Below the pieces are notes generated by a model. It made no database searches. It was not told the origin of the DNA and saw only the letters and a program-made list of their open reading frames with translations. Of a stretch of DNA of 64,000 nucleotides, positions 11,274 to 63,910 are shown in pieces; position 1 is the stretch's first letter, and each line of letters starts with the position of its first letter. A program made the position numbers and the translations under genes. Source of the DNA: Candidatus Yanofskybacteria bacterium (GTDB lineage Bacteria > Patescibacteriota > Minisyncoccia > 2-02-FULL-40-12 > IGHO2-12-FULL-4); contig JACPNK010000006.1 in NCBI GenBank assembly GCA_016185525.1, forward strand, positions 22,728 through 86,727, in the 5' to 3' direction.

Positions 11274-11457
11274 GGAACTTGGCGAACATCACTTCTTTGG
11301 TACGTTCGCTGATTCCAGCCTGCCTGCTGGCAGGCAGGCGGCAGACTCACTCGCTGTTCGCCTGGGTTTTGGCTGGAGTTACAGAATAATTATACTCCAG
11401 CCAACAAAGCAAACCGCAGGCTCACAGCGACCCAGAAGTAATTTTCGCCAAGTTCCC
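11274..11457 (+). ncRNA. structured intergenic element copy A (candidate ncRNA or cis-regulatory RNA)
   Basis: Closing helix GGGAACTTGGCGAA/TTCGCCAAGTTCCC; conserved blocks shared with copy B at 15789-15921; hairpin GGCTGGAGT-loop(TACAGAATAATTAT)-ACTCCAGCC. Confidence 0.45.
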
Positions 11458-15788: not shown

Positions 15789-15921
15789 GTCTTTTCGGTA
15801 CTTTCGCTGATTCCAGCGATCAGCTCACTCGCTGTTCGTCTGGGTTTCAGAAGGAGTTAAAGAATAATTATACTCCTTCTGACCAAGCAAACCGCAGGCT
15901 CACAGCGACCTCAAAGGCTGT
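15789..15921 (+). ncRNA. structured intergenic element copy B
   Basis: Closing helix GCAGATACAG/CTGTATCTGC; hairpin CAGAAGGAGT-loop(TAAAGAATAATTAT)-ACTCCTTCTG; conserved CAAGCAAACCGCAGGCTCACAGCGACC. Confidence 0.45.
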
Positions 15922-18537: not shown

Positions 18538-19557
18538 TCAAATTTTTATTTCCACCACGTCGCCGTCTTGGACTATGTAATCTCGGCCGACAAGTTTCAA
18601 GGTGCCGTTTTCGCGTGCTTTGCCCCACGAGCCAGCCTCCACTAACTTTTGCCAATTAATAACTTCTGCTCTAATGAAAAGTTTTTCAAAGTCAGTATGA
18701 ATAGCCCGGGAAGCTTTGGGGATAGGTGTATTTTTGGGCGCGGTCCAGGCCCGGGTTTCGTCTTCCCCCGTGGTTAAGAAGGTGATTAAATCCAGAAGCT
18801 TATAACTTTTGGAAATCAGTTCATCTAAACCGGAGTGTTCCCGGAAGACTTCTGTGAGGTATAAATCTTTTTCTTCCGGAGAGGCTTCAGACAGCAGAAG
18901 TTCAAAATTAGCGGACAAGACGACATATTGTGATTCGCCCATGGCTTTGATTAGCTCCGGTTCCGGTTGCCAGCGGTTTTTAACCTGCTCTTCCGAAGCG
19001 TTTAAAACATATATCACTTTTTTTGAAGCGAGCAGTTCCAATTCCGGCAATCCTGCCTGACCGGCAGACAGGTCTTCATTCTTGTTTTTTTTGGCCTTTC
19101 TTTTTTCTATGGATTGCAAATCGGCCAATGCTAACTCTGTCTTGATTATTTCTATGTCATGAACCGGGTCAACTTTGCTGTGGACGTGAATTATATTCTT
19201 GTCTTCAAAAACTCTTACCACATGAGCGACTGCATCCACCTCTCTGATGTTGGCCAAAAACTTATTGCCCAAACCCTCGCCTTCAGCGGCGCCTTTGATT
19301 AGTCCGGCAATGTCTATGAACTCAATTGCTGTCGGCACTATTTTTTTTGAATGAGAAAGTCCGGCTAGTATTTTCAGTCTTTCATCCGGCACCTCAACTA
19401 CGCCTACATTGGGATCAATCGTCGTAAAGGGGTAGTTGGCAATGGCTATTTGTTTTCCTGCCCCGTGGCCGCCGTCAGGCGACTTTACGGGGTTAGTTAA
19501 GGCCTTAAAGAGGGTGGATTTACCTACATTAGGCAGGCCTACGATTCCGATTTGCAT
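18538..19557 (-). CDS. ychF: ribosome-binding ATPase YchF (Obg-like GTPase family)
   Basis: [22 protein letters not shown]1 motif; C-terminal TGS-like [13 protein letters not shown]. Confidence 0.85.
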
Positions 19558-19683
19558 ATGCGGTGAATATTAGCAAAAATCCAGTAGATACGCCAATTTT
19601 TTGAGCTTGACTTTTTGCTGAAAAGGTATATGATTAAGGTATAGTTAGGATAGTTCCTTTATTTACTACTTGCCCGCTTCGAC
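19541..19683. repeat. direct repeat DR-L (ychF start + promoter region), partner at 23915-24056
   Basis: About 143 bp, roughly 93% identical to 23915-24056; includes the first 17 nt of ychF. Confidence 0.8.
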
Positions 19684-19828
19684 AAGTCGAAGACGAGGCG
19701 AGCGAGCAGTCATAGCCATAAGTTTCTGATACAAATTGGAAGTTTATTGCTATGACTGCCATTCTGGTGGTCATCGCTGCCGCATAGTGCGGCCAAAACT
19801 GCCGGCATAGCGCCGGAAGGAGGAAGTT

Positions 19829-20422
19829 ATGCGTTGGAATCCAGTTGAACAAGTACAGGATGTCGTGAACAAGTTCGGGACCGAGGAGCGCGTCAAGCGT
19901 TTCCAGTCCGGCGAGCTCGTGCTCGTGGAACGGACGGACCCTCGTGCAGTCGCGATGGTCCTCAACTTCGAGCGGAAGGTCTCGGTGGCCAGCCGCCGGT
20001 TCGTCACCGGCGAGAGCTTCACCAAGAGCAATCCCAAGGTGAAGTTTGGCCACATTGACGAGAAGGTCGTCAAGCTTTTTGGCAAGAGCCAGGACGTGCC
20101 GGCCGGCGAGCTGGCCACACACACGCTCTTACTGCCTAAGCACGATCCCGAAATCATGGTCGCTCTTGGACCTCAGTCCAGGCGTTTCATCAAGCTGGGC
20201 CAGTTCTACCAGTTGATCGAAGCGCAGGGCCAGGGCCAGGAAGGCTCCCTTCTCGTCAACGGATGCGCGAACATTGCGTACATTCTTGACGAGAACGGCG
20301 CGCCTTGGGCGGTCAGCGCGTACTGGGGCCCGATCGATGGCGACTGGCGCATGTGCGTTAACTCGGTTGCCCGCCTGCACGCGTGGCTTGCCGGCAGCCG
20401 GGTTCTCTCGCAAGTCGGATAA
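19829..20422 (+). CDS. DGR target protein 1 (variable C-terminus, C-type-lectin/FGE-like fold presumed)
   Basis: GC-rich (~60%) ORF with GGAGG RBS; its last ~35 codons are VR1. Confidence 0.75.
   Translation: MRWNPVEQVQDVVNKFGTEERVKRFQSGELVLVERTDPRAVAMVLNFERKVSVASRRFVTGESFTKSNPKVKFGHIDEKVVKLFGKSQDVPAGELATHTLLLPKHDPEIMVALGPQSRRFIKLGQFYQLIEAQGQGQEGSLLVNGCANIAYILDENGAPWAVSAYWGPIDGDWRMCVNSVARLHAWLAGSRVLSQVG
20304..20410 (+). repeat. DGR variable region VR1
   Basis: 107 bp aligned with TR1 (20701-20807); nearly all mismatches fall where TR1 has A (AAC codons in TR become GGC/CGC/TGC etc.). Confidence 0.8.
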
Positions 20423-20427
20423 GAACT

Positions 20428-20482
20428 GGGTTCCTTGGGAACTTGGTTCTTGGGCCGGCAGTAGCTTCAACGCTGTTGCCGG
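20428..20482 (+). other. GC-rich hairpin downstream of VR1 (DGR cruciform/stem-loop)
   Basis: GGGCCGGCAGTAGCTTCAACGCTGTTGCCGGCTC inverted repeat. Confidence 0.5.
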
Positions 20483-20700
20483 CTCATTTTTATTTCTATA
20501 AAATACAACTTGGATATTAGGCGAATCTGCTGATCTCCAATTGGATATCAGCGGCCGAACTCTAAGCGCGCATTCAGATTGCTATCGGAGCTTAAAAACG
20601 AAGATACTTGGTGCGGAACACTATGTGAGTCAGCTCACGAATTCGATGCAGTCCCGAGAGTATTCAACGGACAGTGGTAATGGTGGTGTTTCGCACAGAG

Positions 20701-20807
20701 CTTGGGCGGTCAACGCGAACTGGAACCCGAACTATGGCGACTGGAACATGAACGTTAACTCGGTTGCCAACCTGAACGAATGGAATGCCGGCAACCAGGT
20801 TCTCTCG
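20701..20807 (+). repeat. DGR template region TR1
   Basis: Asn-codon (AAC) rich: NWNPNYGDWNMNVNSVANLNEWNAGNQ; downstream hairpin AAACTCC/GGAGTTT and a CCAGCCGCC motif. Confidence 0.8.
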
Positions 20808-20820
20808 AAATTCTCTTCGT

Positions 20821-21168
20821 TCAAAAACTCCTTTGCGGAGTTTTTGTTTGTTTTTGCCAGCCGCCGAGCATTTTGCCTATCTCATTCAGATGATTCGACA
20901 ATGTTACATATTTCTTTACATCAAGTATTTCTATTTCCCATGCAATCTGTAATATAAATTTCAACATATCAAATGAGTCCGAGGCCTTGGCAAGATAAAA
21001 TCCTTTTTGTTCACGGTTTTTATGAGCTGCAATAAATAAATGTTCCGTGGTTTCGATAAACAGGTTATCAATTTTTAGACCAATAGTATATCGATTGATT
21101 TTCTCTAATCTAATAAAATATTCATGCCAAACTTTGTAAACCACAATCAACTTTTGGATAATCGGCAA
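20821..21168 (-). CDS. avd: Avd-like accessory variability determinant (four-helix-bundle / 23S rRNA IVS protein family)
   Basis: 115 aa; ...KFILQIAWEIEILDVKKYVTLSNHLNEIGKMLGGWQK is the typical IVS/Avd C-terminus; immediately adjacent to TR1 and the RT. Confidence 0.65.
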   Translation of the reverse strand: MPIIQKLIVVYKVWHEYFIRLEKINRYTIGLKIDNLFIETTEHLFIAAHKNREQKGFYLAKASDSFDMLKFILQIAWEIEILDVKKYVTLSNHLNEIGKMLGGWQKQTKTPQRSF

Positions 21169-21177
21169 AGTAGCGCT

Positions 21178-21187
21178 GGGGGGGGGG
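21178..21187. repeat. G10 homopolymer tract in the avd/RT divergent intergenic region
   Basis: gctggggggggggcgtag. Confidence 0.9.
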
Positions 21188-21232
21188 CGTAGAAGGATTG
21201 AATTTGGTCATAGTTTTGATGAGGTTATTAGT

Positions 21233-22177
21233 TTGGAAAATTTACTGGAATCCTGGAAAGAGTTCCTGAAAGGCAAACGCAAGAGAAAGGATGTCCAGGA
21301 GTTTGGCCTTTTTCTGATGGATAATATTATAGGCCTGCACAACGATCTTGACAATCATACATATAACCACGGGCCATATCAAGCGTTTCGCATAAATGAT
21401 CCCAAACCGAGACAGATACACAAGTCATTGGTCCGTGACCGGTTGCTCCACCATGCTATTTATCGTCAACTCTATCCGTTTTTTGATCGAATGTTTACTG
21501 CCGACTCCTTCTCATGCCGACTTGGCAAGGGGACACACAAAGCATTAAACAGGTTCAGAAGTTTTGCATTCAAAGTCAGCAAAAACAACACCAGGACGTG
21601 TTGGATTTTGAAATGTGATATCAAGAAGTTCTTTGAGAATATTGACCACGAGGTTTTGCTTAGCATCTTAAAAGAATACATCCGTGACCGGAACACTATC
21701 TGGCTTTTAGAGAGAGTGATTTACAGCTTCTCATCCGCTCCAGGTAGGGGATTGCCTCTCGGCAATCTCACCTCGCAGTTGTTCGTGAATATCTATATGA
21801 ACGAATTTGATCAGTTTGTGAAGCACAATTTGAAGGCAAAATACTATATCAGATATGCCGATGACTTTGTGGTCTTGTTTCAAGACAAATCTTGGCTCGA
21901 AGAGATGCTTCCTAAAATGGGTGACTTTCTGGAAGAAAGATTAAAACTTGAACTTCATCCAGACAAGGTTTTTATCAAAACGTTTGCTTCGGGAGTTGAC
22001 TTCCTTGGCTGGGTTCACTTTCCAGATCACAGAGCATTGAGAACGACTACCAAGAAGCGGATGCTTAAAAGGATTAAGGCAAAACAGGATATTAGCACAA
22101 CCAAATCTTATTTGGGACTTATTAGTCATGGAAATGCTAAAAAACTAGAAAAAGAGATATTAAGGATTTCTGAATAA
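21233..22177 (+). CDS. DGR reverse transcriptase
   Basis: 314 aa; RT motifs including GLPLGNLTSQLF (DGR-specific IGxxxSQ) and YIRYADDFVVL (YADD). Confidence 0.85.
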   Translation: MENLLESWKEFLKGKRKRKDVQEFGLFLMDNIIGLHNDLDNHTYNHGPYQAFRINDPKPRQIHKSLVRDRLLHHAIYRQLYPFFDRMFTADSFSCRLGKGTHKALNRFRSFAFKVSKNNTRTCWILKCDIKKFFENIDHEVLLSILKEYIRDRNTIWLLERVIYSFSSAPGRGLPLGNLTSQLFVNIYMNEFDQFVKHNLKAKYYIRYADDFVVLFQDKSWLEEMLPKMGDFLEERLKLELHPDKVFIKTFASGVDFLGWVHFPDHRALRTTTKKRMLKRIKAKQDISTTKSYLGLISHGNAKKLEKEILRISE

Positions 22178-22182
22178 TTTCT

Positions 22183-22272
22183 GTAGAGGGGGAAGTTTTA
22201 TTGTAAACTGAAACGGGATGTATTTGAGCCGGTTATCGTCAAATCCATGTCGCATTGCGTTCCGACTATACC
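22183..22272 (+). repeat. about 90 bp junction element, copy 1 (copies at 23811-23914 and 25389-25507)
   Basis: Shared GGAGGAAGTTTTAYTGTRAAC...TGTCGYATTGCGTTC blocks. Confidence 0.6.
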
Positions 22273-22406
22273 AATCTGGAGCATTTTGGTAATTTATCAT
22301 TTTAAACCCACCTTCTCAAGTTAACTTGCTATCATCAGGATCTTATGATTTAATTCCGATATAATTACTAATGTAAATTTAGTGAGTGTTTGGTAAATTA
22401 TTATTT

Positions 22407-22976
22407 ATGGAAAACGGCTATTTTTATTCACGAAGAGAAAACGTCAACGATTTGTACTATGATGCTATGGAATTGCTTCATGGAAACATTGAGGAGGCCA
22501 GGAAAGCTGAAAAATTATTAGCAAAAGCTCTTGGCCTGGATCCTAATAATATCCAAACGCATATTGGTTTTGCGCATTTGTACGGACGTCTTAAAAATAA
22601 AAAGAAAACAGAAGAACATATCAAGAAGGCCTACGAAGAAACAACTAAGAAATTTCCGGTTTGGCCCAAGCGTATGGAGTGGGGCGACATGGATAATCGG
22701 GCGTATATGAGAGCGATACAATACCGCGCTGATCTTTACGCTGATGATGGAGAAAAAGAAAAAGCCGTAAGTTTATATCGGCTGCTTCTTAAGTTGAATC
22801 CCAACGATAACCAGGGTGCTAGGTACACCATCTCTGGTGTCTATGCCGGAATAAGCGGAAAAGAAATTAATAAAATGTTTGACGAGTGCAACAGGCGACA
22901 AAATTGGGCTAGGCTTGAAGACCTGATCAAAAAACAAAATGCCAAACACAAGTTTTGGAAAGAACCAAGATTTTGA
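22407..22976 (+). CDS. TPR repeat protein
   Basis: TPR-like helical repeats (AEKLLAKALGLDPNN..., LYRLLLKLNPNDNQG); table ORF starts at a GTG at 22386. Confidence 0.5.
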   Translation: MENGYFYSRRENVNDLYYDAMELLHGNIEEARKAEKLLAKALGLDPNNIQTHIGFAHLYGRLKNKKKTEEHIKKAYEETTKKFPVWPKRMEWGDMDNRAYMRAIQYRADLYADDGEKEKAVSLYRLLLKLNPNDNQGARYTISGVYAGISGKEINKMFDECNRRQNWARLEDLIKKQNAKHKFWKEPRF

Positions 22977-23019
22977 GAAGATTGTTGATATCAAATTTCC
23001 TACATGGTATATAATAAAA

Positions 23020-23358
23020 ATGAGTACAATTCATGAGTACCTCATTGATACAGAAGATTATAGAGGCAAGCGGGTAATCTTTACTGAAGCTAAGCGTCTA
23101 GAAAAGTCAGCCCAGCATGCCGAATTAAACAATAAGCAGTTTCTAAAAAATATTGAGCCGACCATTAAAGATCCCGAAGAGGTCTGGCCAGACTATAGTG
23201 ACAAAAATAGAAAAGCATGTTATTATAAGAAATACTCAGCCACTACTTATGTTAAGGTGGTAATTTGGATATATGACAGTCCTTGTCGAGTAGTTACTGC
23301 TTATGAAACTGATAAAATTAAGGAAATGCTATATCCAGAATTAAATCGTCTTAAATAA
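23020..23358 (+). CDS. hypothetical protein
   Basis: ORF; internal ATG with A-rich upstream region, since the table start at 22939 overlaps the previous gene. Confidence 0.4.
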   Translation: MSTIHEYLIDTEDYRGKRVIFTEAKRLEKSAQHAELNNKQFLKNIEPTIKDPEEVWPDYSDKNRKACYYKKYSATTYVKVVIWIYDSPCRVVTAYETDKIKEMLYPELNRLK

Positions 23359-23368
23359 TTATAAAAAC

Positions 23369-23791
23369 ATGACAACTAACATTAAACAAAATAGAGAGTT
23401 TATTGACCTAGCCTCAAATCTCCAAGGATTTATTCAGAAAAACGGTTGGATTAGTAGATACGATCTTGAAAGTGATGCCTTTTCAATTACCACCCCGAAT
23501 TTATCGGAGGACGCTAGAATTCGCTATTTCGATGATGAGATAGCTCTTTATGTTACGAATGACAATAAGATTGAGGGTATCTTTATGGAATACTTCAAGA
23601 GTAATTTTGTCCAACACCATAAAGACCTCAAGCCTGTTTTAGAAAATATAGAAAAAGAACAAGGAAAGAAAGAAATCGGTCTTGTCCAATTAGGTAAAGA
23701 TAAAATACAAAAACTCGCTCCTGACATACAGGAAGCCCTCCAGGTGCTTCTGGCAGAGAAGCTTAATCTAGGATTAAACCAAGCTCGATAG
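23369..23791 (+). CDS. hypothetical protein
   Basis: 140 aa ORF. Confidence 0.45.
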   Translation: MTTNIKQNREFIDLASNLQGFIQKNGWISRYDLESDAFSITTPNLSEDARIRYFDDEIALYVTNDNKIEGIFMEYFKSNFVQHHKDLKPVLENIEKEQGKKEIGLVQLGKDKIQKLAPDIQEALQVLLAEKLNLGLNQAR

Positions 23792-23810
23792 TAGCCTGCT
23801 CAAATAATTG

Positions 23811-23914
23811 CTAAGGATTACCAAATAACTTCTGGACAGGAGGTAATTTTTTTTGAAACTAAAAGGTATCAGTTTTACCGGCATATTACCATAGCTGTAT
23901 CGCATTGCGTTCAT
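23811..23914 (+). repeat. about 90 bp junction element, copy 2
   Basis: CTAAGGATTACCAAATAACTT...TCGCATTGCGTTCAT. Confidence 0.6.
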
Positions 23915-24056
23915 ACGATTCCTATTTGCATATGCGGTGAATATTAGCAAAAATCCAGTAGATACACCAGTTTTTGAACTTGACTTTTTGCTGAAAAGGT
24001 ATATAACTAAAGTATAGTTAGTATAGTTCCTTTATTTACTACTTGCCCGCTTCGAC
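23915..24056. repeat. direct repeat DR-R (remnant ychF promoter + first 6 codons MQIGIV then stop)
   Basis: Matches 19541-19683. Confidence 0.8.
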
Positions 24057-24112
24057 TCCTACTACCGTCTCGTTCGTCCTCGCAGGTAGCAAAAACCTGA
24101 GACTCTTGGTTC

Positions 24113-24361
24113 TTGGACCCCGTTCAGTTTACTGAACGGGGTCGTTTTCTTTGTAGCTTTTCAACTTTAAGCACTTTTACAGGCCTTGCCTGTCAGAATA
24201 CAATGAAATACCTCGCAAACCTGTGCAATCAGACGACCAATTCAAGAAAGTTCTGGCCCAAAACAATGCTTTACCACAGCAATGACCCTGAAGGCGTTGA
24301 AATAACGAGAGCCTTTACGACAAGTTTTGAAAAAGAAACTCTGCCTAAATATAGTGAGTAA
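24113..24361 (+). CDS. hypothetical protein (weak)
   Basis: 82 aa ORF only. Confidence 0.25.
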   Translation: MDPVQFTERGRFLCSFSTLSTFTGLACQNTMKYLANLCNQTTNSRKFWPKTMLYHSNDPEGVEITRAFTTSFEKETLPKYSE

Positions 24362-24543
24362 CTGGGTAGGGTAATCTGCTCTAATCAAAATAAAACCAAC
24401 CAACAAAAAAAACACCCCTCCGAGCCATATGTTGATATCTAATTTTCTATATGGTATATAATGAAGTTAAGGAAAATTTATAGTATAGAGCGTTGGTTAT
24501 AGGTAATGTTGACTTTTCTAGTTTACTAATTTATAATATTGCT

Positions 24544-25388
24544 ATGGTAAAAAATGTCAAAAATACTCTTCATATCGGTATTAAACAACTCCTAAAATTA
24601 GATGATAAGTTGGCGAAGCTGCGTAAGCCTACATCTATTGAGGAGGAGTCTTTGCATGCCCAACACAGATTTGAAGCGACATATTACTCAAACAAGCTTG
24701 AGGGGAATAAACTAACGAAAGAAGAGGCCAGAAAAGCTATTCTATTTAAGTAATTAATGAAACGTCCACTTAATAAACGTGAGTCAGACATATTAGAAGA
24801 AGAGGCCACTGGGAAGCCTCTTCTTCTTTACATAGACTTATCAAACGCTTAGTTCGTAAAAGACTTCCTTTAGAGCTGAGGTTTATTAAAACTGCACACA
24901 AAACTATTTTTGATATTGCTAAACAACCAGAAATCGGAGGCGTGTATCGAAACGACAACAGTCCAGAGTTAAAAAGAATAGATGGAACTACTCTGCCAAT
25001 GACAGATTGGCCCTTAATATCTAACGCAATGGCAGAACTTGATTCAGAACTTAGAGAAAAAACTAAAAATCTTGTGCATCCGAAAACTGAGCAAGGATAT
25101 TCTGAATTGATAATGCTAGCAACTAGACTTTCTCATAAACTGGTCTGTATACACCCCTTTAGAAATGGGAATGGAAGAGCGTCTAGATTATTATTAAATG
25201 CTATTCTTTTAAGAGCGGGCTTATCAGAAATTGCCATTAAAAAATCAAAACCAACATATCTCCGTGCCATGAGACAAGCTGATGATGGTGACTTTTCTCT
25301 TCTAGAGAACCTTGTTGTCAACGGGTTGGTCGAAACTAAAAAAATAAATTACTCAAGTATCCATTTGTCTTACCCATCAGGTCGCTAG
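24544..25388 (+). pseudogene. fic: Fic family protein, disrupted (in-frame TAA at 24754 plus a frameshift before 24850)
   Basis: N-terminal part has SNKLEGNKLTKEEA; C-terminal part has IHPFRNGNGRASR (HPFx[DE]GNGR). The two parts lie in different frames; promoter TTGACT-17-TATAAT at 24509-24537. Confidence 0.7.
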
Positions 25389-25507
25389 CTAAGGATTACC
25401 AAATAACTTTTGAGCAGGAGGAAGTTTTACTGTGAAACGGAATGGCATGAATTTAACTGATGAGCCGCTTGAGCTATGTCGTATTGCGTTCATACAATTC
25501 CGATTTT
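25389..25507 (+). repeat. about 90 bp junction element, copy 3
   Basis: Starts CTAAGGATTACCAAATAACTT like copy 2; ends GTCGTATTGCGTTCATACAATTCCGATTT, resembling the ychF 5' end. Confidence 0.6.
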
Positions 25508-25670
25508 TAACATGTTCAGATTGTAGCAGAAAACTATGGAAAACCAAGAAAATAAAATTTAAAAACCGCCGTTACGGCGGGTCAAAAGCTTAGTCGCTCG
25601 AGTCATAATTTTGATTAAGCACCGCTTGTCAGCTTTTTACATTTTAGCGGAACAGGTTTAACATAAGAGA

Positions 25671-26477
25671 GTGCAAAAGCCATGGTACACGATAGAGGAA
25701 AAACACAAAAATAAGAAGCTGATTGTTTTTGATTTAGACGGTACGCTGACCGAGAGCAAAAAGGAGATAGACCAAGAGATGGCCTTGCTTTTGGCTAAAC
25801 TGCTTGAAAAAAAAGAAGTTGCCGTGGTTGGCGGCGGAAAATATGAGTTGTTTCAGAGTCAACTTTTGGCGAGGCTGAAAGTGCCGGAATCCTCACTGAA
25901 AAAACTTTTTATATTTCCAACTTCAGCCTCGTCCTTTTACAGTTATGTTAGGGGTTGGAAAAAAGTATATTCCAAAGAACTTTCAGAGGAAACACGGGCC
26001 AGAATTAAGAAGGCTTTTGAAGAAGTTTTCAAGGAAGTAAACTATAAACATCCCGAAAAAACTTATGGAGAGGTTATTGAAGACAGGGGTTCACAGGTTA
26101 CATTTTCCGTTTTTGGCCAGGACTTAGTTAAGGTTTTGGGCAAAAAAGGAGTTGAAATGAAAAAAGAATGGCGGGACAAAAATACTAGACTCAAATTAAG
26201 GCTCGCAAAGATGCTTCAAAAAAAACTGCCCGATTTGGAAGTCCGCGCGGCGGGCTATACTTCGATTGATGTAACTCAAAAGGGGATAGACAAGGCTTAT
26301 GGTTTAAGGCAAATAAAAAAGCATCTCGGAATTAAATTCAGCGAGATGCTGTTTGTAGGCGATGCTTTGTTTAAGGGCGGCAACGACTACGCTGCTCTTA
26401 AAACCGGCGTAGAATGTGTCGCGGTAAAGGGGCCGGAAGAAGCCAAGAAGATTATCAAATTCCTATTTTTTCTTTGA
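25671..26477 (+). CDS. HAD-IIB family hydrolase, phosphomannomutase-like
   Basis: LIVFDLDGTLTE motif I; KGIDKAYGL; FVGDALFKGGNDY. Confidence 0.65.
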   Translation: MQKPWYTIEEKHKNKKLIVFDLDGTLTESKKEIDQEMALLLAKLLEKKEVAVVGGGKYELFQSQLLARLKVPESSLKKLFIFPTSASSFYSYVRGWKKVYSKELSEETRARIKKAFEEVFKEVNYKHPEKTYGEVIEDRGSQVTFSVFGQDLVKVLGKKGVEMKKEWRDKNTRLKLRLAKMLQKKLPDLEVRAAGYTSIDVTQKGIDKAYGLRQIKKHLGIKFSEMLFVGDALFKGGNDYAALKTGVECVAVKGPEEAKKIIKFLFFL

Positions 26478-27435
26478 TTTCTTTCAAGGTACTGCTTGCA
26501 ATTACTCTAGCTTTTTCTTCTGACTCTGTCAATACCTTATCAACATAGTCCATGTTGTTCTTGAGTTCACTGTATTTCTTTTGAAAAGGCTTTAGAAAAT
26601 CTACAACGACTTCAGCTAAGTCATTTTTAAAGTCCGCGTAAGTTTTGCCTTCATAGTCTTTTTCAATTTCTTCTATCGTTCTGCCGGATAGTAACTGGTA
26701 AATTGTGAGTAAATTGGAAATAGCCGGTTTTTTGTCCTCGTCATATTTTATTTCTTTGCCCGAATCAGTTACCGCCTTTTTTATTTTTTCTCTGACAACC
26801 TCCGGATTATCAGATAAGGCAATGCCCTCGTCGCCGGTTTTGGACATTTTTTTAGCCGGATCCTGCAGGGACATAACTCGGGCGCCTTCAGTAAGGTGTG
26901 GCTTGACCGTCTGGAAAGTTTCGCCGAAAAGATGGTTGAACTTTCTGGCAATTTCGTTTGTCAGGTCAATGTGGGGGAGCTGGTCGTCGCCGACTGGCAC
27001 AAGGTTTGATTTGTAAATTAAAATATCAGCGGCCATGAGCACCGGGTAGTCCAAAATTCCCATATGGGTGTACTTGCCCTGCGTCTGTTCTATTTTTTCC
27101 TTGTAAGTGGGTAAGCGGTCCAGCCAGCTTACCGGAGTTATTGTGTTAAAAATCCAAGCAAGCTCGGTATGCTGTGGAACTTTTGATTGGCGGATTAGTA
27201 TGGATTTTTCCGGATCAACGCCGGCGGCCATATAGTCCAAAACCGCTTCCATAACTTGCTGATGATAGGTTTTGGGGTCAAAAGGCGTGGTGATGCCGTG
27301 GTAGTCCACAACAGCAAAAACAGTCCTTTCCGTGTCCGGACTTTTTTGCAGTTCTACCCAATTTTTTATGGCGCCCAGATAGTTGCCTAGATGCAATTTA
27401 CCGGAAGGCCGTATACCGGAAAAAATTTTATTCAT
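26455..27435 (-). CDS. trpS: tryptophan--tRNA ligase
   Basis: IFSGIRPSGKLHLGNYLGAI (HIGH region) and KMSKT. Confidence 0.9.
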   Translation of the reverse strand: MNKIFSGIRPSGKLHLGNYLGAIKNWVELQKSPDTERTVFAVVDYHGITTPFDPKTYHQQVMEAVLDYMAAGVDPEKSILIRQSKVPQHTELAWIFNTITPVSWLDRLPTYKEKIEQTQGKYTHMGILDYPVLMAADILIYKSNLVPVGDDQLPHIDLTNEIARKFNHLFGETFQTVKPHLTEGARVMSLQDPAKKMSKTGDEGIALSDNPEVVREKIKKAVTDSGKEIKYDEDKKPAISNLLTIYQLLSGRTIEEIEKDYEGKTYADFKNDLAEVVVDFLKPFQKKYSELKNNMDYVDKVLTESEEKARVIASSTLKEIKEKIGI

Positions 27436-27510
27436 ACAACTAAGAATACAGCATTAAAAGTTTTTAGACAATTTTACTGCGACCTGCTATAATTATTATA
27501 ATGGAATTTA

Positions 27511-27606
27511 ACCAACCAACCAACCAACCAACCAACCAACCAACCAACCAACCAACCAACCAACCAACCAACCAACCAACCAACCAACCAACCAACCAAC
27601 CAACCT
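27511..27606. repeat. (CCAA)n tetranucleotide microsatellite, about 24 units
   Basis: Uninterrupted accaacc... run. Confidence 0.95.
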
Positions 27607-27881
27607 AAATTTTTAGAAGTTTGTTCGGTTCTACTATACAGATATACAGACCGTGATAAACGGTTTTTTTATTTTTCGGTTAACCAAAACCAGAATTGAT
27701 TTTTTAGTTCTCGTGACAATTTATATGAATTAGCATGACTTAAAACACCGAGATACGTTTGCAACGATTGTTCAAGAGTTTCAGTAGAAATAAGGTCTTG
27801 CTTTTGGCGGCTGGATAAAATCAACCCGCGATTGTTAAAGAAATATCCTCCAAGCGGAGGATATTTCTTGTAAGAGAGAAA

Positions 27882-27998
27882 GAAGTTCCGGGAGGCACCA
27901 ACGCCCACGTTGTTGTTGCGATTGCCGTTCCAGTTATTGATGTTGAGGCCGTTCTCGTCGAAGTTGCCGACACACGAAACGTTGTCAGCGTTGGCCGA
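27882..27998 (-). repeat. DGR template region TR2 (minus-strand sense)
   Basis: Sense strand encodes FFSANADNVSCVGNFDENGLNINNWNGNRNNNVGVGASRNF (AAC rich); 117 bp aligned with VR2. Confidence 0.75.
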
Positions 27999-28297
27999 AA
28001 AGAACGCATAATGCCCATCTCCATCTATGTCACCGGGGATTTAGGTTTACCACCCAAGCGGGCCTATATCCTATCTCCCCTGAATTTTATTCGGGAGCAT
28101 CTGCTTTTTACGGCAGAACCTCCACTAAAGACAAGCAAGAAGTTCAATCTCAACTTTTTATCGCGCACTACCGTAATCCGTAAACGACGGTATTCCGGCG
28201 ATTCCTCAAAAGAAGAGGTGTCCGCGAGGTGAAGCCGTAACCGCATCTGCATTAGCAGACAAAGAAATTGTATCAAGTATTATTATAAAAACAAAAC

Positions 28298-28338
28298 GAG
28301 CCTTCGGCGCTGCGAAAAAAAATTCGCGCCGAAGGCTC
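28298..28338. terminator. strong hairpin just downstream of VR2 / target 2 stop
   Basis: GAGCCTTCGGCGC-loop-GCGCCGAAGGCTC (13 bp stem). Confidence 0.6.
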
Positions 28339-28355
28339 AAGCAAGGCTTCAAGGT

Positions 28356-29210
28356 TCAGAACTTCCGGGAGGCACCAACGCCCACGTTGCCGGCGCGACC
28401 GCCGTCCCAGCTATCGATGCGGAGGCCGCGCCCGTCGAAGCGGCCGACACACGAAACGTCGCCAGCGAAGGCCGAGTCGGTCTTCACTGTCCGCTCCGCG
28501 CAGGCTGCCCATTTGGATCCGTTGGGACGAACACCAGTCTTACGGAAGACGAGGATGTCCTTGGTCGTTTCCATTATCGTCGATGGCACTTCGTACTCGG
28601 GCGGAAGCATCGCCACCTGCTCTTCGGGCGTCTTGTTCGTCGAGTTAGGAACGATCTCCGTATGGAGCAGGTAATAGCGAAGCCGCATGGTCGCCACATC
28701 GGTGTGGGGCTGGCCTCCGTGCCAGGGGTTGCTGTTGAAGTAGAACTTCGGCTGGCCCGTTGCCGGATGCAACTGAAGCCACTTGGCCACCGTGAGAGGC
28801 GAACCGTTGATGGCGGTCAGGCCCAGGAATGCGAAGTGGCAGTCCTTCACCACCTTGCCGCAGAGCGGGCAGGTGGAATTGAGGATGTCCTCACCCCACG
28901 GGAACTTTCCGGCGTCGCGGATCTGCTTCTTCGTGAACTTGGCGTCGTAGTAGCTCATCCAGTCGGCAACATCGAAAATGTTGCGACCGAGAACCATACG
29001 AGCCATGCGCGATTCGATAGAACCGATGAGGCCTTTTCGCAACATCGCCTGAGCGATGCGGCGAGTGTACTCGCTGTCGGTGCGGAAGAGATCGAAGAGA
29101 TCGCGGGGATTGCCTCCCTCACTGGCAATCGCTTTCTCAAGCGACGCCACGCTTTCCTCGAACTCACCCTTGGTCATGGTCCAGAGACCGCTTGTCTTGG
29201 CTTGTGTCAT
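28356..29210 (-). CDS. DGR target protein 2 (variable C-terminus)
   Basis: GC-rich ORF; ATG at 29210 with GGAG RBS (the longer ORF to 29279 is unlikely); C-terminus DSAFAGDVSCVGRFDGRGLRIDSWDGGRAGNVGVGASRKF is VR2. Confidence 0.7.
   Translation of the reverse strand: MTQAKTSGLWTMTKGEFEESVASLEKAIASEGGNPRDLFDLFRTDSEYTRRIAQAMLRKGLIGSIESRMARMVLGRNIFDVADWMSYYDAKFTKKQIRDAGKFPWGEDILNSTCPLCGKVVKDCHFAFLGLTAINGSPLTVAKWLQLHPATGQPKFYFNSNPWHGGQPHTDVATMRLRYYLLHTEIVPNSTNKTPEEQVAMLPPEYEVPSTIMETTKDILVFRKTGVRPNGSKWAACAERTVKTDSAFAGDVSCVGRFDGRGLRIDSWDGGRAGNVGVGASRKF
28359..28475 (-). repeat. DGR variable region VR2
   Basis: Differs from TR2 almost only at positions that are A in the TR2 sense strand (T on plus). 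Confidence 0.75.
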
Positions 29211-29480
29211 AACACATCTCCTTTTTTTGTCGGTTTGCTCTCCATGTCCTTTAGGGACTCTTGAGAGCGGATGCCCCATGCCGTGGGGCTGCGGTCCTGC
29301 CTACCGGCAGGCAGGCTTGTCTCAGAAGTTGAGACAAGTATGCTGGAAACCATTGTTTAGGCATCCAAAATGCTTGTCTCAAGTAGAACCTTATTGTAAG
29401 GAACTACATCATAATTATATCATCTTGTAAGTGTGCCTGTCAATAGGGTATTTTACTCGGGACTAGGGAATGGACTGGGT

Positions 29481-31298
29481 TTACACTTCTATGACTACCG
29501 GCAAGACCATGGGTCTTTTTTCTGTTTTTTGGAAGAGAAACTTGCCGATTTCTTCGCGGAGATTGTCTTTAAGATAAGCGGTGTCAACCCTGCCGACAGC
29601 GCTGGTTTTTTCAACAACAAATCTGGCCTTCTTTCTGACTTGAGCAAGGAGTTCTTTGTTGTCTTTCAAATAAATAAAACCACGGGAGATGATATCCGGA
29701 CTGGTCAGTACTCGGCCGGTTTTTGTATCTATGAGAATGACTATGACAAACATACCGTCTTCGGCTAGAACTTGTCTGTCTCTCAAGACTACGTTGCCGA
29801 CATCGCCGATGCCTAAACCGTCGACTAGTATCGGATTGCTGGCGACCGTTCTTTTGTCAAACCACCACCTGATCTTATCTGAAATCGGGTTTTCTAAATC
29901 GGGGTTGCTTAGATGAATAACAGAGCCGTTGTCGGCAATAATGATGTTTTCTTCGGGAATTCCTTTGGTCTGGCCTATTTCTGAATGGCTGACCATCATT
30001 GAATATTGTCCATGGATTGGCATGAGGATTTTTGGGTTCATAACTTCCATCATGTGTCCCAAGTCTTCTCTCTGAGCATGTCCGCCGGCGTGTATGTCCA
30101 TCATTTGGTAGTGGTAAACTTTCATGCCTGCTCTGTAAAACATATCTTTTAAATTTTGCACGGCTCTTTCATTGCCCGGCACGGTGGAAGAGGAAAAAAT
30201 CAAAGAGTCTTTTTTAATCAGACGAATAAAACGGTGTTCATGGTTGGCAATACGCATCAAAGCGGCGTTGCTTTGTCCCTGCGCGCCGGTGGCGATGACT
30301 GTAATTTTAGACCGAGGATAATCATTTACCTGATTGGATGTAATCTGGGTGTCTTTTTGCATTTTTATATAACCCAGCTCCTTGGCTATTTCAACGTTTG
30401 ACTTCATGCTGTAGCCTTCAAAAACAACCTTCCGGCCGTATTTTTCCGAAAGCCAGACTATTTGCTGGATACGGTCAACCATGGAAGCAAAAGTTCCAAA
30501 GACAATCATCTGCTTTGATTCTCTGAAAATCAGCTCCATGTTGTCCATGATAGTTTTTTCTGAAATTGAGTGGCCTTCTCTTTCTGCGCCGGTTGAGTCG
30601 GCCATTAAGACTGATACGCCTCTTCTGCCGAGTTCTCTTAGGTGGTCAAGGTTTATGGGTTGGCCGTTGGTGGGCGAATGGTCAAACTTAAAATCAGCCG
30701 TATGAACTATTGTTGCTTTGGGTGTTTTGATGAATAAAGCAAGGTCGTCAGGTATGTTGTGGTTAACATGAAAAAATTCAACTTCAAAATAGTCTCCGAA
30801 TTTTGCGGTGTCATCGGCTTTTACGATATGGAATTTTAGTTTTGGCAAATGGGGGAATTCTTCATGTCTTTTGGCGACGATGCCTCTGGTCAAAGCGCCT
30901 CCGTAAATATCCGGATTGCCAAGTTTTTCCAGCAAGTAGGGCAGAGCGCCGATATGGTCCATGTGGCCGTGAGTTAAAATCAAGCCTCTTATATTCCCTC
31001 TTTTTCTTTCCAGATATTCGGTGTTGGGGATAATGTAATCTATCCCCAAGTGGTCTTCGTCGGGAAACTTAAAACCGGCATCAATTACCAATATGTCGTC
31101 TTTGTATTCCAGGAGACACATATTTTTTCCTATCTCGCCGAGTCCGCCCAGGGGAATAATTTTAAGAGTTTCTTCCCCGTGGTCGGAGGTCATTTTTGTC
31201 GGTCCTAAAGCTGGGGGAGTTCTCCTCGCGGGGCGCGGATTGGGAGATCTTTTCCAAGAAGATCTTCTTGGTTTTTTAGCTGTAGTTGTTTCTATCAT
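29481..31298 (-). CDS. rnj: ribonuclease J (beta-CASP metallo-beta-lactamase)
   Basis: LKIIPLGGLGEIGKNM; HGHMDHIGALPYL; beta-CASP region. Confidence 0.85.
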   Translation of the reverse strand: MIETTTAKKPRRSSWKRSPNPRPARRTPPALGPTKMTSDHGEETLKIIPLGGLGEIGKNMCLLEYKDDILVIDAGFKFPDEDHLGIDYIIPNTEYLERKRGNIRGLILTHGHMDHIGALPYLLEKLGNPDIYGGALTRGIVAKRHEEFPHLPKLKFHIVKADDTAKFGDYFEVEFFHVNHNIPDDLALFIKTPKATIVHTADFKFDHSPTNGQPINLDHLRELGRRGVSVLMADSTGAEREGHSISEKTIMDNMELIFRESKQMIVFGTFASMVDRIQQIVWLSEKYGRKVVFEGYSMKSNVEIAKELGYIKMQKDTQITSNQVNDYPRSKITVIATGAQGQSNAALMRIANHEHRFIRLIKKDSLIFSSSTVPGNERAVQNLKDMFYRAGMKVYHYQMMDIHAGGHAQREDLGHMMEVMNPKILMPIHGQYSMMVSHSEIGQTKGIPEENIIIADNGSVIHLSNPDLENPISDKIRWWFDKRTVASNPILVDGLGIGDVGNVVLRDRQVLAEDGMFVIVILIDTKTGRVLTSPDIISRGFIYLKDNKELLAQVRKKARFVVEKTSAVGRVDTAYLKDNLREEIGKFLFQKTEKRPMVLPVVIEV

Positions 31299-31350
31299 AA
31301 ATTAAAAAATTGAATTAAATTTAGAGATGTTTAAAACTATTTATTTTTTT

Positions 31351-31455
31351 GGTGCAGTATTCTTGAATTAGTCCGAACGCATTTCGCCGCCACAGGCGGC
31401 GAGGAAGTCCCCTCGCGAAAATTCGGAAAGGCGGCGGAGCCACACCGCTGACAAT
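31351..31455. repeat. att-like site L (core GGTGC + arm), inverted copy of 32408-32512
   Basis: Reverse-complement identity to the central block. Confidence 0.7.
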
Positions 31456-31490
31456 TTCAAGTTTTTCTTTGGCGGCAAGTTCTTTAAAAA

Positions 31491-32304
31491 CTATTTAGTA
31501 AATTTGAAAGTTGAAAAAACTTGCGATAGATAATTAAATAATTTTGTTTTATCTAATTCATCTAGCTGTTTCTTTTCGGATGAACTGATTCCTGTATAAA
31601 GTTCTAGGGCGATCCAGTAGCATCTTTCGTTGCGATAGGTTCTGTAAGCTTGTTCGCGACGATTACCAAGATCGATATCGTCATAGGCGTAATCAGTTCC
31701 GTTAACCGATACTTGGGTTGTGTTTTTTTCCATGTAGACCGTTGCTAAACAATCTTTTTGGGATGTATCCTTTTCTGGCACAACTTGCAAAAGCGCGGCG
31801 TCGAGATTTGTGTTTACAAATTCGTCCCCCGTATAGAAAAGGCAAATTGCACTTTTAGGGCTACAATAAGACGTTCCGTCGACCATTGAAAAAGATTTTT
31901 GTTGGTTGGGTCTCAGATCTGTCGAAAGGGTGTAAAACTTTTCCGGGAACTTAAATTCAAAACCGTAATCACGATTATCATAAGCTCTCCAGCTTACCAA
32001 CTGGTCCTGTGACGGTGGTTGCGTATTAAATGCTTCTCTTTTTCGAAAAAGAGTGTTCCCTAAGTCAAGGCTAAATAGGAGTTGAGAGATAAAAAAAACA
32101 ACTAAAAGTGAGAACAAAATCCAATGCCATTTTTTAGTAAAACCACCTCTAACCGCAACCAATGTTCCCCAGACAATCAGCCCGCCTATTGGTATCAATC
32201 GAGCAAGCGATAAATTACCTTTCAGTAAGAAGTATATTGCTAAAGCAGAAGCCACCAGTAAAAGCAAGGCTATAACACCAGCAAATTTTCTATTTTGGTT
32301 CATA
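31491..32304 (-). CDS. hypothetical secreted/membrane protein
   Basis: Start MNQNRKFAGVIALLLLVASALAIYF; the longer table ORF to 32738 reads through the repeat block and is likely spurious. Confidence 0.5.
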
Positions 32305-32407
32305 TAATTATTGTACAAACTTAATTTCGACCTTATGATTAAAAAATTTTCTTCCCCCAAAATTAAAACATGGTTCGAGCCGATGTTTTTCTCCGGGCTC
32401 TTTTGCG

Positions 32408-32608
32408 GTTTTGAGCGGTGCAGCTCCGCCGCCTTTCCGAATTTTCGCGAGGGGACTTCCTCGCCGCCTGTGGCGGCGAAATGCGTTCGGACTAATTCAA
32501 GAATACTGCACCAGACAGGAAATTGCAAGTTTGAAAGGTTTGCCTCGCTTCGCTCGGCGACTAATTCGTATTGGATTTTCGGGGCAAAAAAGAATTGGCG
32601 ATTTTGCA
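32408..32608. repeat. central att-like block (inverted attP-like): arm X' + core GCACC (32508-32512) + arm Y
   Basis: Left half is the reverse complement of 31351-31455; right half is the reverse complement of 34011-34112. Confidence 0.7.
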
Positions 32609-32651
32609 TTTTGGGGGAAGAAAATTTTTTAATCCTTAATCCAAAAACAAT

Positions 32652-34160
32652 ATGAAATATATACTTTACGCTCGTAAATCTACCGAGGAGGATGACCGAC
32701 AAGTGCTTTCGATTCAAGCGCAACTCGAAGAGTTGCAAGAGTATGCCGCCAAAGAAAAACTTGAAATTGTCGCCTCGTTTTGCGAGGCGAAAACCGCAAA
32801 AGAGCCCGGGCGAATTAAATTCGCTGAAATGTTGTCATTGATTGAGAAGGGGAAAGCAGACGGAATTATTTCTTGGCACCCCGATAGATTGGCTCGTAAT
32901 TCTGTGGACGGAGGGAAGATTATTCATTTCGTAGATCGTGGCTTGATTCATTCCCTAAAATTTCCCACTTTCTGGTTCGAGGCAACACCACAAGGTTTGT
33001 TTATGCTTCAGATTGCTTTCGGTCAATCAAAATATTTTGTAGATAATTTGCGAGAGAATGTGAAGCGCGGTTTGCGACAAAAGATACGAAATGGAACATG
33101 GCCCGGTTGGGCTCCGGTTGGCTACCTAAATAACCCTAAAACCCGTGGTATAGACATTGATGTGGACAAAGCACCTAAAGTGCTAAAAATGTTTGAACTG
33201 TATGCCACCGGAGCGCATACGCTCCACTCTCTCGCAAAATGGTGCGATAACAATAACCTACGCGGCAATCTTGGGAAAAAACTTGTTATCGCAAATATAC
33301 AGAAAAATCTACAAAATATTTTCTATCTCGGTTTGATGAAGTGGAAAAGGGAAATTTTTGAGGGAAAACACGAGCCGTTAATCTCAAAGAAACTTTTTGA
33401 TAAATGTCAGGAAGTTATGGCGAAACGCGGTAAAGTGCAGGAGGTTCGCAAACATCATTTTGCTTTTCTTGGCCTTTTAAAATGTGCCTCTTGTGGTTGC
33501 TCAATCACCGGAGAGCGACAGAAAGGACATAATTACTATCGTTGCACGAAAAAGAAAGGGCCATGCCAAGAAAAGCATTATCTCCGCGAGGAAGTGTTAA
33601 CCGAGCAGATCAAAAACTTCTTGCAAAAAGTTTCTTTGTCGAGCCAAGACACCGAGAAAGTTTTGGCGGCGTTGGATAGCGAACAGGATAAAGCACGGCA
33701 AGATGCACAAGGCGAGATTAGTATTTTGAAAGAGCAATTAGGAGAGGTTGAAACAAAACTTCAAAAACTATTAGACATCTATCTTGCCGACACTTTATCC
33801 ACAGAAGAATATGCCGCCAAAAAGAAAAGTTTGCTGTATCAAAAAATGTCTTTGAATGAGAAAATCACCGACTTTGAGACAAAAGGATTGTCTTGGCTCG
33901 AACCGGCTCGTGATTTCGTTTTATCTTTGAATCAAGCCACGAATCTGCTTTCCCCTCCCAATCTTTCTGGAATGACAACATTTCTAAAAAACATCGGCTC
34001 GAACCATGTTTTGCAAAATCGCCAATTCTTTTTTGCCCCGAAAATCCAATACGAATTAGTCGCCGAGCGAAGCGAGGCAAACCTTTCAAACTTGCAATTT
34101 CCTGTCTGGTGCCCAGGGGGAGATTTGAACTCCCACGCTCTTACGAGCACACGGCCCTGA
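32652..34160 (+). CDS. large serine recombinase (integrase-type)
   Basis: N-terminal resolvase domain YARKSTEEDDRQ (catalytic Ser), zinc ribbon CASCGC...CTKKKGPC, coiled-coil; the 3' end reads through att site R into tRNA-Leu, so the true C-terminus is uncertain. Confidence 0.8.
   Translation: MKYILYARKSTEEDDRQVLSIQAQLEELQEYAAKEKLEIVASFCEAKTAKEPGRIKFAEMLSLIEKGKADGIISWHPDRLARNSVDGGKIIHFVDRGLIHSLKFPTFWFEATPQGLFMLQIAFGQSKYFVDNLRENVKRGLRQKIRNGTWPGWAPVGYLNNPKTRGIDIDVDKAPKVLKMFELYATGAHTLHSLAKWCDNNNLRGNLGKKLVIANIQKNLQNIFYLGLMKWKREIFEGKHEPLISKKLFDKCQEVMAKRGKVQEVRKHHFAFLGLLKCASCGCSITGERQKGHNYYRCTKKKGPCQEKHYLREEVLTEQIKNFLQKVSLSSQDTEKVLAALDSEQDKARQDAQGEISILKEQLGEVETKLQKLLDIYLADTLSTEEYAAKKKSLLYQKMSLNEKITDFETKGLSWLEPARDFVLSLNQATNLLSPPNLSGMTTFLKNIGSNHVLQNRQFFFAPKIQYELVAERSEANLSNLQFPVWCPGGDLNSHALTSTRP
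34011..34112. repeat. att-like site R (arm Y inverted + core GGTGC overlapping the tRNA-Leu 3' end)
   Basis: Reverse-complement identity to 32508-32608. Confidence 0.7.
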
Positions 34161-34193
34161 ACCGTGAATGTCTGCCAATTTCATCACCTGGGC
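34107..34193 (-). tRNA. tRNA-Leu (anticodon CAG), CCA encoded
   Basis: GCCCAGG acceptor stem, anticodon stem-loop CACGG-TTCAGGG-CCGTG, long variable arm, T-arm GGGAGTTCAAATCTCCC, 3' CCTGGGCACCA. Confidence 0.85.
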
Positions 34194-34207
34194 TTTTGCG
34201 ATGCGGT

Positions 34208-63638: not shown

Positions 63639-63910
63639 TCCCCGGTAGCTCAGCGGTAGAGCGGCTCGCTGTGAAATAACGCAGCTACCTAGAGAAATCT
63701 AGGATGAAAAACTTTGGGATAACGGTGAAACCTTTTTTAAAATGGTAACACCGTGGGAACCACGTAAAATGCTAAGGCATCACGTGGGCGCCGTAGAGAC
63801 TAGATACCGAAGCACCCAACAGTAGGGTGGTGATATAGTCCATCCCACTACGAAAGTAGTGGACAAATGTAACGAGAAGGTCGTAGGTTCGATCCCTACC
63901 CGGGGAGCCA
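63639..63910 (+). tRNA. tRNA (tentatively Asn, anticodon GUU after splicing) interrupted by a group I intron
   Basis: 5' exon TCCCCGGTAGCTCAGCGGTAGAGCGGCTCGCTGT; 3' exon TAACGAGAAGGTCGTAGGTTCGATCCCTACCCGGGGAGCCA; acceptor halves pair perfectly. Confidence 0.6.
63673..63869 (+). ncRNA. group I intron (197 nt) in the tRNA anticodon loop
   Basis: Follows a U in the exon and ends in G; contains the R-like GTAGAGACTAGA and S element GATATAGTCC. Confidence 0.55.

Follow-up and report, generated by a model that had tools for sequence, protein, structure and literature searches.

A complete diversity-generating retroelement (DGR) of the type found in the Candidate Phyla Radiation (CPR)/Patescibacteria occupies positions 19829-22177 of a 64,000-nt stretch of DNA (the window) from a metagenome-assembled genome (MAG) that carries the NCBI name Candidatus Yanofskybacteria. 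In this element, referred to as DGR1, a target gene containing the variable repeat (VR) is followed by the template repeat (TR), an inverted avd gene, and the reverse transcriptase (RT) gene. A second repeat pair, TR2/VR2, belongs to a different DGR lineage and is most simply explained as a recent relic. The probability assigned to this reading is about 90%. CPR bacteria are the richest known reservoir of DGRs. The initial annotation of this DNA had described a complete DGR (target with VR1, TR1, Avd, and RT) in a CPR-like genome; all of the parts were found intact where it had placed them, and the NCBI name of the MAG agrees with the proposed host.

The TR1/VR1 Repeat Pair

The central evidence for DGR1 comes from the comparison of its two repeats, which were aligned without gaps at an offset of 397 nt, with the distribution of mismatches over adenine and non-adenine template positions evaluated by a Fisher test. 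Over the full 113 nt, 19 of the 21 mismatches fall on TR adenines (19/31 A vs 2/82 non-A positions; p = 1.4e-11), and over the first 107 nt, 18 of the 19 mismatches do so (18/28 A vs 1/79 non-A; p = 1.9e-12). The adenine bias claimed in the initial annotation is therefore borne out, and tabulating the mismatches by template base gives a strong enrichment (p ~1e-11), but the count of about 22 mismatches in 107 bp has to be lowered to 19. The changes from TR1 to VR1 consist of nine A>G, six A>C, and four A>T substitutions, which are found predominantly at codon positions 1 and 2. The two differences at non-A positions are T20733>G, which is internal, and T20811>G, which lies at the 3' boundary; the earlier statement that such differences are located at this boundary thus applies to the second of them only. 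As there are so few non-A mismatches, TR1 and VR1 have not drifted apart.

The 3' end of VR1, GGTTCTCTCGCAAGTC, forms a boundary resembling the mutagenic-homing initiation element (IMH), with VR1 ending in ...TCTCGCAAGTC and TR1, which would carry the corresponding IMH*, ending in ...TCTCGAAATTC. Similar contrasts at the 3' end are observed in two other pairs. In the sister element (described below), the VR ends in ...CGCAAGT and the TR in ...CGAAACT, while TR2/VR2 share only the downstream G-vs-C difference (VR2 ...GGAAGT, TR2 ...GGAACT). Consequently, A20808>C is probably a fixed difference between IMH and IMH*, and not a product of mutagenesis.

When read in the VR frame, TR1 contains 11 AAC/AAT codons and 16 variable codons, corresponding to a coding potential of ~8e15 peptides with stop codons unreachable. 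An alignment of VR across the family reveals hypervariable columns that alternate with scaffold positions (W, A, V, and S) at which the residue does not vary. TR1 itself is not part of a real gene. It lies within the 398 nt that separate T1 from avd, and the 138-aa open reading frame (ORF) overlapping it is no more than the TR in the frame of VR.

Avd and the Reverse Transcriptase

The translation of the RT ORF contains the sequences GLPLGNLTSQ (LGNLTSQ) and YIRYADD (YADD), as had been reported for it, and scores 89.2 bits against Pfam RVT_1. The best solved relative in the PDB is 8ub7_A (149.5 bits, E = 1.2e-42), the RT of the Bordetella phage DGR, in which D215 and D216 of the YMDD motif match the catalytic residues given for bRT (Handa et al.). 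This DGR enzyme is well ahead of the best group II intron RT (74 bits) and of the retron-type RTs, which score lower. Judged by its sequence, in which both motif 4 ([I/L]GxxxSQ) and YxDD are present, the enzyme is a member of the DGR clade of RTs. The ORF assigned to Avd passes the Pfam bAvd model (48.6 bits, cut-off 40), which upholds the proposal that an Avd-like gene separates TR1 from the RT and is read from the other strand, and the position and orientation of avd are the same in every related locus with enough DNA.

NCBIfam contains no DGR RT model, and the best NCBIfam model for this RT is group_II_RT_mat (147.7 bits, cut-off 300); retron_St85_RT scores 55 bits (cut-off 235). A protein with 100% identity to the RT is encoded on a 183-kb contig of an NCBI Candidatus Yanofskybacteria MAG; the NCBI product name of the RT is 'group II intron reverse transcriptase domain-containing protein', and the targets are named hypothetical. 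Both the product name and the rank of group_II_RT_mat, even at half of its cut-off, would fit an alternative in which ordinary duplication or gene conversion produced the repeat pair, and a group II intron or retron enzyme unrelated to it supplied the RT. Virtually no credence is given to this alternative, as nearly all mismatches lie at adenines of one copy, the RT contains no maturase or endonuclease domain, and an Rfam scan of 19000-30000 detected no intron RNA or other known RNA family. The presence of Avd adds to this evidence, and it is the adenine pattern, the ranking of solved structures, and the conserved cassette layout that refute the duplication, group II intron, and retron readings. 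A practical value of the assignment to a DGR is that the annotations of both the RT and the targets can be corrected.

Related Loci

A scan of one genome per species recovered 551 relatives of the RT, the best 80 of which are 63-79% identical to it. These 80 are mostly from genomes labelled CPR/Patescibacteria or simply 'bacterium', with a few MAGs carrying other labels. A TR/VR pair is detectable beside avd and RT in 58 loci, and the order target (VR), TR, inverted avd, RT is found in 58/58, again with TR/VR mismatches on adenines. In the CPR set of Wu et al. 2018 (PMC5758913), architecture B3, 'TR-(avd)-RT', has a share of 90%, and DGR clade 2 is restricted to Patescibacteria, encoded by cells, and associated with targets that have no recognisable domains (Roux et al. 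2021, PMC8144416). Since the layout matches B3 and the relatives are mostly CPR, DGR1 is a typical member of a known group, and with this standard layout it adds little as a DGR. The coordinates of DGR1, of the second repeat pair, and of the surrounding features are collected in Table 1.

Table 1. Positions of the features discussed in the text, numbered from the first nucleotide of the window.
Feature	Position	Strand	Description
Left boundary repeat of DGR1 cassette	19540..19683		ychF start codon region and 126 nt upstream; promoter-like site 19607-19634
Target gene T1, 197 aa	19829..20422	+	VR1 forms its 3' end
VR1	20304..20416	+	Variable repeat; encodes the last ~38 residues of T1 (~159 to 196)
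Two hairpins directly after T1 stop codon	20421..20486	+	Imperfect 14-bp stem 20421-20451; G+C-rich 13-15-bp stem 20451-20486, then TTTTTATTT
TR1	20701..20813	+	Invariant template repeat
avd, 115 aa	20821..21168	-	TTG start; opposite strand to TR1 and RT
Post-TR1 stem-loop	20822..20856	+	10-bp stem, 5-nt loop, U run; 9 nt past TR1; overlaps avd 3' end (other strand)
G10 homopolymer	21178..21187		In the 64-nt gap between divergent avd and RT
DGR RT	21197..22177	+	Listed ORF from TTG 21233, 314 aa; homology from ATT 21197
Right boundary repeat of DGR1 cassette	22161..22290		~125 nt; begins in the last RT codons
Scar of lost avd2/RT2	27669..27832	-	Last ~13 codons of avd2 (27794-27832, plus strand) joined to last 44 codons of RT2 (27669-27806, minus)
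TR2	27881..27998	-	Template of VR2; own stem-loop (14 bp, GCTT loop) at ~27838-27869 (-)
VR2	28358..28475	-	C-terminal end of T2; then G+C-rich hairpin and T run at ~28298-28338 (-)
T2	28356..29279	-	Longest ORF 307 aa; NCBI and homologues give 284 aa from 29210; G+C 57-59%

The Variable Protein and the Proposed Mechanism

The target gene T1 encodes a protein in which a Pfam scan identified no domain. The C-terminal half of T1 was modelled as a C-type-lectin-like (C-type-lectin / FGE-like) fold, and on the basis of this model T1 is predicted to be a variable protein that displays VR on this fold. Neither a lipoprotein signal nor another evident export signal was found in T1.

Two structural elements flank the repeats. 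The hairpins that follow VR1 have a predicted DNA folding energy of -18.6 kcal/mol (z = -5.2), and 0/200 shuffled sequences are as stable. One G+C-rich hairpin had been predicted at this location; it was found, along with a further hairpin that precedes it. The second of the two hairpins, together with its T run, looks like a terminator. Another stem-loop follows TR1, and its conservation was evaluated by folding each sequence individually in the 58 loci and in 1368 control windows. A stem of at least 7 bp with a T run ~13 nt past TR is found in 49/58 loci compared with 75/1368 controls (5.5%), and there are 44 different sequences among these stems. RNAalifold predicted no structure from a MAFFT alignment of 57 post-TR regions, in which stems and loops of unequal length are misaligned. 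An Avd-binding stem-loop has been reported 'just downstream of TR' in 207/278 DGRs, CPR included, with 9-bp stems being most frequent (Handa et al., bioRxiv 10.1101/2023.10.23.563531). By analogy, the post-TR1 stem-loop is probably the counterpart of this Avd-binding element of the DGR RNA.

The arrangement of these parts suggests the mechanism that is standard for DGRs. First, TR1 would be transcribed along with the stem-loop just 3' of it. Next, a pentameric Avd, the presumed binder of the stem-loop, would hold the RT as it copies TR1 into cDNA, and the RT would insert random bases opposite template adenines. The cDNA would then take the place of VR1, with the shared 3' end (IMH vs IMH*) and the post-VR1 hairpins as guides. 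T1 would be a small C-type-lectin-like protein that is apparently cytoplasmic or not anchored, and as many as 16 codons of its ligand-binding face could be rewritten in this way, giving ~1e15-1e16 variants. We infer the limits of transcription, that Avd binds the stem-loop, how cDNA synthesis is primed, the RT start codon, and that DGR1 is active at present.

Activity of DGR1

Several observations weigh against the reading of DGR1 as a complete element of this kind. The Avd ORF matches NCBIfam DivGenRetAVD end to end, but its score of 65.2 bits is under the cut-off of 80, and a phmmer search found no direct sequence match of this Avd to any solved Avd. The RT has no ATG, GTG, or TTG where its relatives start. 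The U run after the post-TR1 stem-loop resembles an intrinsic terminator; as termination at this position would drop the downstream primer and RT-binding RNA needed in Bordetella, priming may differ here. Finally, no variation of VR1 is visible: over stretches of 1.1-2.2 kb that span both VR1 and TR1, five assemblies, each from a different sequencing run, show 100% identity to the window. This comparison uses consensus sequences, in which minority variants would stay hidden. Variants of VR1 from the same strain were not recovered, as exact-pattern scans of metagenome contigs with a segment of the T1 body and with the TR1 core gave no match.

The invariance of VR1 and TR1 across the five run assemblies, the lack of a canonical start codon at the conserved RT N-terminus, and a G10 tract that is out of frame with the sole upstream ATG would all be expected if DGR1 were structurally complete yet silent or very rarely active, with VR1 being effectively a fixed allele in the population. 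This alternative is considered unlikely, though it deserves serious attention. Against it, the ORFs are all intact with the catalytic YADD retained, the non-A positions of the two repeats have stayed nearly identical, and variation could be concealed by the consensus assemblies. Additionally, the missing ATG is not a recent defect, because the same configuration is kept in at least seven related species. Activity has also been observed at the level of the clade. In a sister DGR whose RT is 76% identical to that of DGR1, the TR is invariant across four samples and 22/23 polymorphic VR positions lie at TR adenines. The sister element is thus visibly active and varies between samples.

The G Tract and the RT Start Codon

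A feature shared by DGR1 and most of its relatives is a homopolymeric G tract between the divergent avd and RT genes. Of 74 related loci (among L001-L080), 65 have a tract of G7-G14 at this position, and only 12 G/C runs of at least 7 occur elsewhere in the 0.8 Mb of sequence of those loci. As read on the avd mRNA, the tract is a C run that ends 8-11 nt before the start codon; in the window it is C10 and ends 9 nt before the TTG start. Towards the RT, the distance from the tract to the start downstream of it is 9-45 nt. The length of the tract varies among close relatives, and its flanks are conserved. Consensus lengths are constant within an element, with G9 in seven contigs of the sister element and G10 in the window's own assemblies. 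The DGR lineage represented by locus L081, which is described below, has no G tract.

The frame and homology of the RT extend upstream of TTG 21233 to ~21197, where the sequence begins with IEFGHSFDEVIS... and relatives have ATG-AAA-ATT. The subgroup to which the window belongs instead has a conserved ATT 9-12 nt after the G tract, and in the window this codon, ATT 21197, is 9 nt past the tract. This arrangement suggests that ATT 21197 may serve as the RT start codon.

Phase variation of the RT by frame-shifting at the G tract was considered and is unlikely, since the upstream ATG is in frame only at tract lengths that are multiples of 3 and 8/8 observed lengths are out of frame; this ATG is simply a conserved codon for an Avd histidine, read on the opposite strand. 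The tract could instead function as a tuner of expression, as a Shine-Dalgarno-like leader for the RT, or as a structural element. Among the 20 results listed by a full-text search of the literature, with Paul et al. 2017 not covered, there was no report linking DGRs with a homopolymer or poly-G tract. If it holds up, the retention of such a tract between both machinery genes across dozens of species suggests an unstudied layer of control.

The G+C Content of the Target Genes

The target genes are also distinguished by their base composition. T1 has a G+C content of 59-63% in a genome of ~40%, and T1 and T2 alike show this excess. In most relatives, the G+C content of the target gene is 10-15 points above both flanks and above avd and RT, and the elevation is confined to the target ORF and the TR. 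Mean values over the 58 loci are 0.41-0.47 upstream, 0.54-0.57 in the target body, 0.65 in VR, ~0.5 in TR, and 0.38-0.44 in avd and RT. A similar trend is observed for G+C at third codon positions (GC3), which is 0.65 in target bodies, 0.45 in RTs, and 0.46 in other ORFs of the same loci; in 37/52 loci, target GC3 is more than 0.1 above the value for the other ORFs.

Adenine-specific erosion of the target body was rejected as the cause of this excess because T (0.20) is rarer than A (0.26) in target bodies. Wu et al. 2018 (PMC5758913) discuss G+C content for whole DGRs only, as a sign of transfer. No cause is apparent for this sharp excess, which is limited to the target genes.

The Orphan Pair TR2/VR2

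The second repeat pair resembles the first in its pattern of mismatches. Over 118 nt, TR2 and VR2 differ at 21 positions, 20 of which are TR2 adenines (p = 2.8e-14), leaving one non-A mismatch in 88 non-A positions. The associated target, T2, has at least 292 homologues, and those with names are mostly from CPR/Patescibacteria MAGs. T2 has no known domain, as profile searches of the PDB and Pfam gave no credible match, and its AlphaFold2 (AF2) model is poor (mean predicted local distance difference test score, pLDDT, of 57) and too weak for a fold search.

The history of this pair can be read from the syntenic locus L081, which is intact and contains RNase J, a target of the T2 type, TR, an inverted avd, and RT. 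The window is collinear with L081 at 85% identity and is missing 1234 bp, corresponding to L081 6422-7655, which hold almost the whole of avd and residues 1-305 of the RT. The deletion junction displays only ~3 nt of microhomology. The lost RT, of the L081 type, is 48% identical to the RT of DGR1 (RT1), and its Avd is 29% identical to that of DGR1 (Avd1). TR2 has kept its 3' motif, CGGAACTTCTTTC, for which the clade consensus is CGCAACTCTCTTC. Relative to L081, TR2 and VR2 share lineage-specific non-A substitutions, indicating that homing postdates the split from the L081 lineage.

A further locus, L084, contains at 2282-2954 a target of the T2 family and a truncated TR of 76 nt (6 mismatches, all at A) with no avd or RT nearby. 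Because the RT has also been lost and the TR truncated at this locus, decay of the T2-type DGR lineage is recurrent.

Two explanations of TR2/VR2 were weighed, and the favoured one is that the pair is a relic of the deleted element. In the other, RT1 and Avd1, encoded 6 kb away, keep the pair diversifying in trans, so that one RT would serve two templates. The shared lineage-specific substitutions, an intact T2 ORF, and the retention of both the 3' motif and the stem-loop of TR2 are in line with service in trans, as is the finding that TR2/VR2 is as clean as pair 1, but a recent deletion accounts for the clean pair equally well. Service in trans is also made improbable by the low identity of RT1 and Avd1 to the cognate types, by the specificity of the protein-recognised RNA elements in Bordetella (Handa et al., bioRxiv 10.1101/2023.10.23.563531), by the recurrence of loss illustrated by L084, and by VR2 being identical in both runs that carry it.

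A broader proposal would join the features above, with the G7-G14 tract acting as a slippage-prone control that makes hypermutation phase-variable or tunable, the same machinery also serving TR2 in trans, and the G+C-rich targets perhaps being a further signature of the system. This combination is regarded as quite improbable, and the relic reading of TR2/VR2 is retained. Nonetheless, an RT-less TR2/VR2 pair near an intact heterologous DGR provides a natural test of whether DGR proteins act in trans.

Genomic Setting

The region 19540-25520 looks, from its repeats, as if three tandem cassettes had been inserted at the start of ychF. The left boundary repeat of the DGR1 cassette has a copy at 23914-24056 that is 94-95% identical, and the right boundary repeat has relatives at 23812-23931 and 25390-25520. 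Each copy of the right repeat holds a degenerate 5' end of ychF on the minus strand (MLQIGIVG, MQIGIV*, and MLKIGIV*). The cargo of the cassettes consists of DGR1, of a TPR protein with a PBECR2 nuclease together with a 140-aa ORF, and of a Fic-domain gene. The latter appears to be split into an N-terminal piece (24493-24753) and a piece containing HPFxxGNGR (24942-25388), and may be a pseudogene or frameshifted. No integrase was found within the ychF cassette array. The array is specific to this genome, as the cassette-boundary repeats are unmatched in any related locus.

Other features of the window include a long (CCAA)n microsatellite at 27501-27608, flanked by the remnant of RT2 and the gene for tryptophanyl-tRNA synthetase, and an insertion of ~2.9 kb relative to L081 at 31299-34207, between the RNase J and PGI-like genes. 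This insertion contains a large serine recombinase (32652-34160) and inverted repeats of 101 nt (100% complementarity) and 105 nt (96%). An 87-nt direct repeat with an internal hairpin is present in two copies that are 87% identical and 4.5 kb apart (11346-11432 and 15824-15910). Rfam models identify a group I intron at 63663-63862, and the 3' end of 23S rRNA and 5S rRNA at 1-260.

Comparison with Known Systems

The closest counterparts of DGR1 are the DGRs of CPR bacteria (B3, Wu et al. 2018; clade 2, Roux et al. 2021), from which it has no essential difference. The parts of these elements are ordered and oriented as in DGR1: avd lies inverted between TR and RT, and just upstream there is a short target that has no transmembrane or known domain and carries VR at its C-terminus. 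The host belongs to the Parcubacteria group of the CPR, and RT relatives at 63-81% identity are mostly from CPR MAGs. No description of the G tract, the G+C-rich targets, or the missing canonical RT start of the subgroup was found in the literature covered, which did not include Paul et al. 2017.

DGR1 shares with the DGR of Bordetella phage BPP-1 (mtd-avd-TR-brt) the adenine-specific transfer from TR to VR, an Avd, a target fold of the C-type-lectin type, hairpins 3' of VR, and a stem-loop just 3' of TR, and bRT is its closest solved RT. In contrast to the BPP-1 element, DGR1 is chromosomal and not phage-borne, and its avd is inverted between TR and RT. Past the 3' side of the stem-loop, its RNA would consist of antisense avd, where the BPP-1 element has a dedicated spacer of 140 nt. 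The stem-loop of DGR1 also differs in having a terminator-like U run, and its 197-aa target has no tail-fibre context. The modelled fold of T1 resembles the C-type-lectin / FGE-like fold of Treponema denticola TvpA; however, T1 is <10% identical to TvpA and to Legionella LdtA, is much smaller, and has no evident export signal.

Wu et al. 2018 (PMC5758913) noted that degenerate or incomplete DGRs call for care in the inference of function. TR2/VR2 and T2 resemble such elements in having lost RT and avd, as in non-autonomous remnants. They differ from other degenerate DGRs in that the deletion is exactly mapped by comparison with an intact syntenic relative, the repeat pair is pristine, and an intact heterologous DGR is located 6 kb away.

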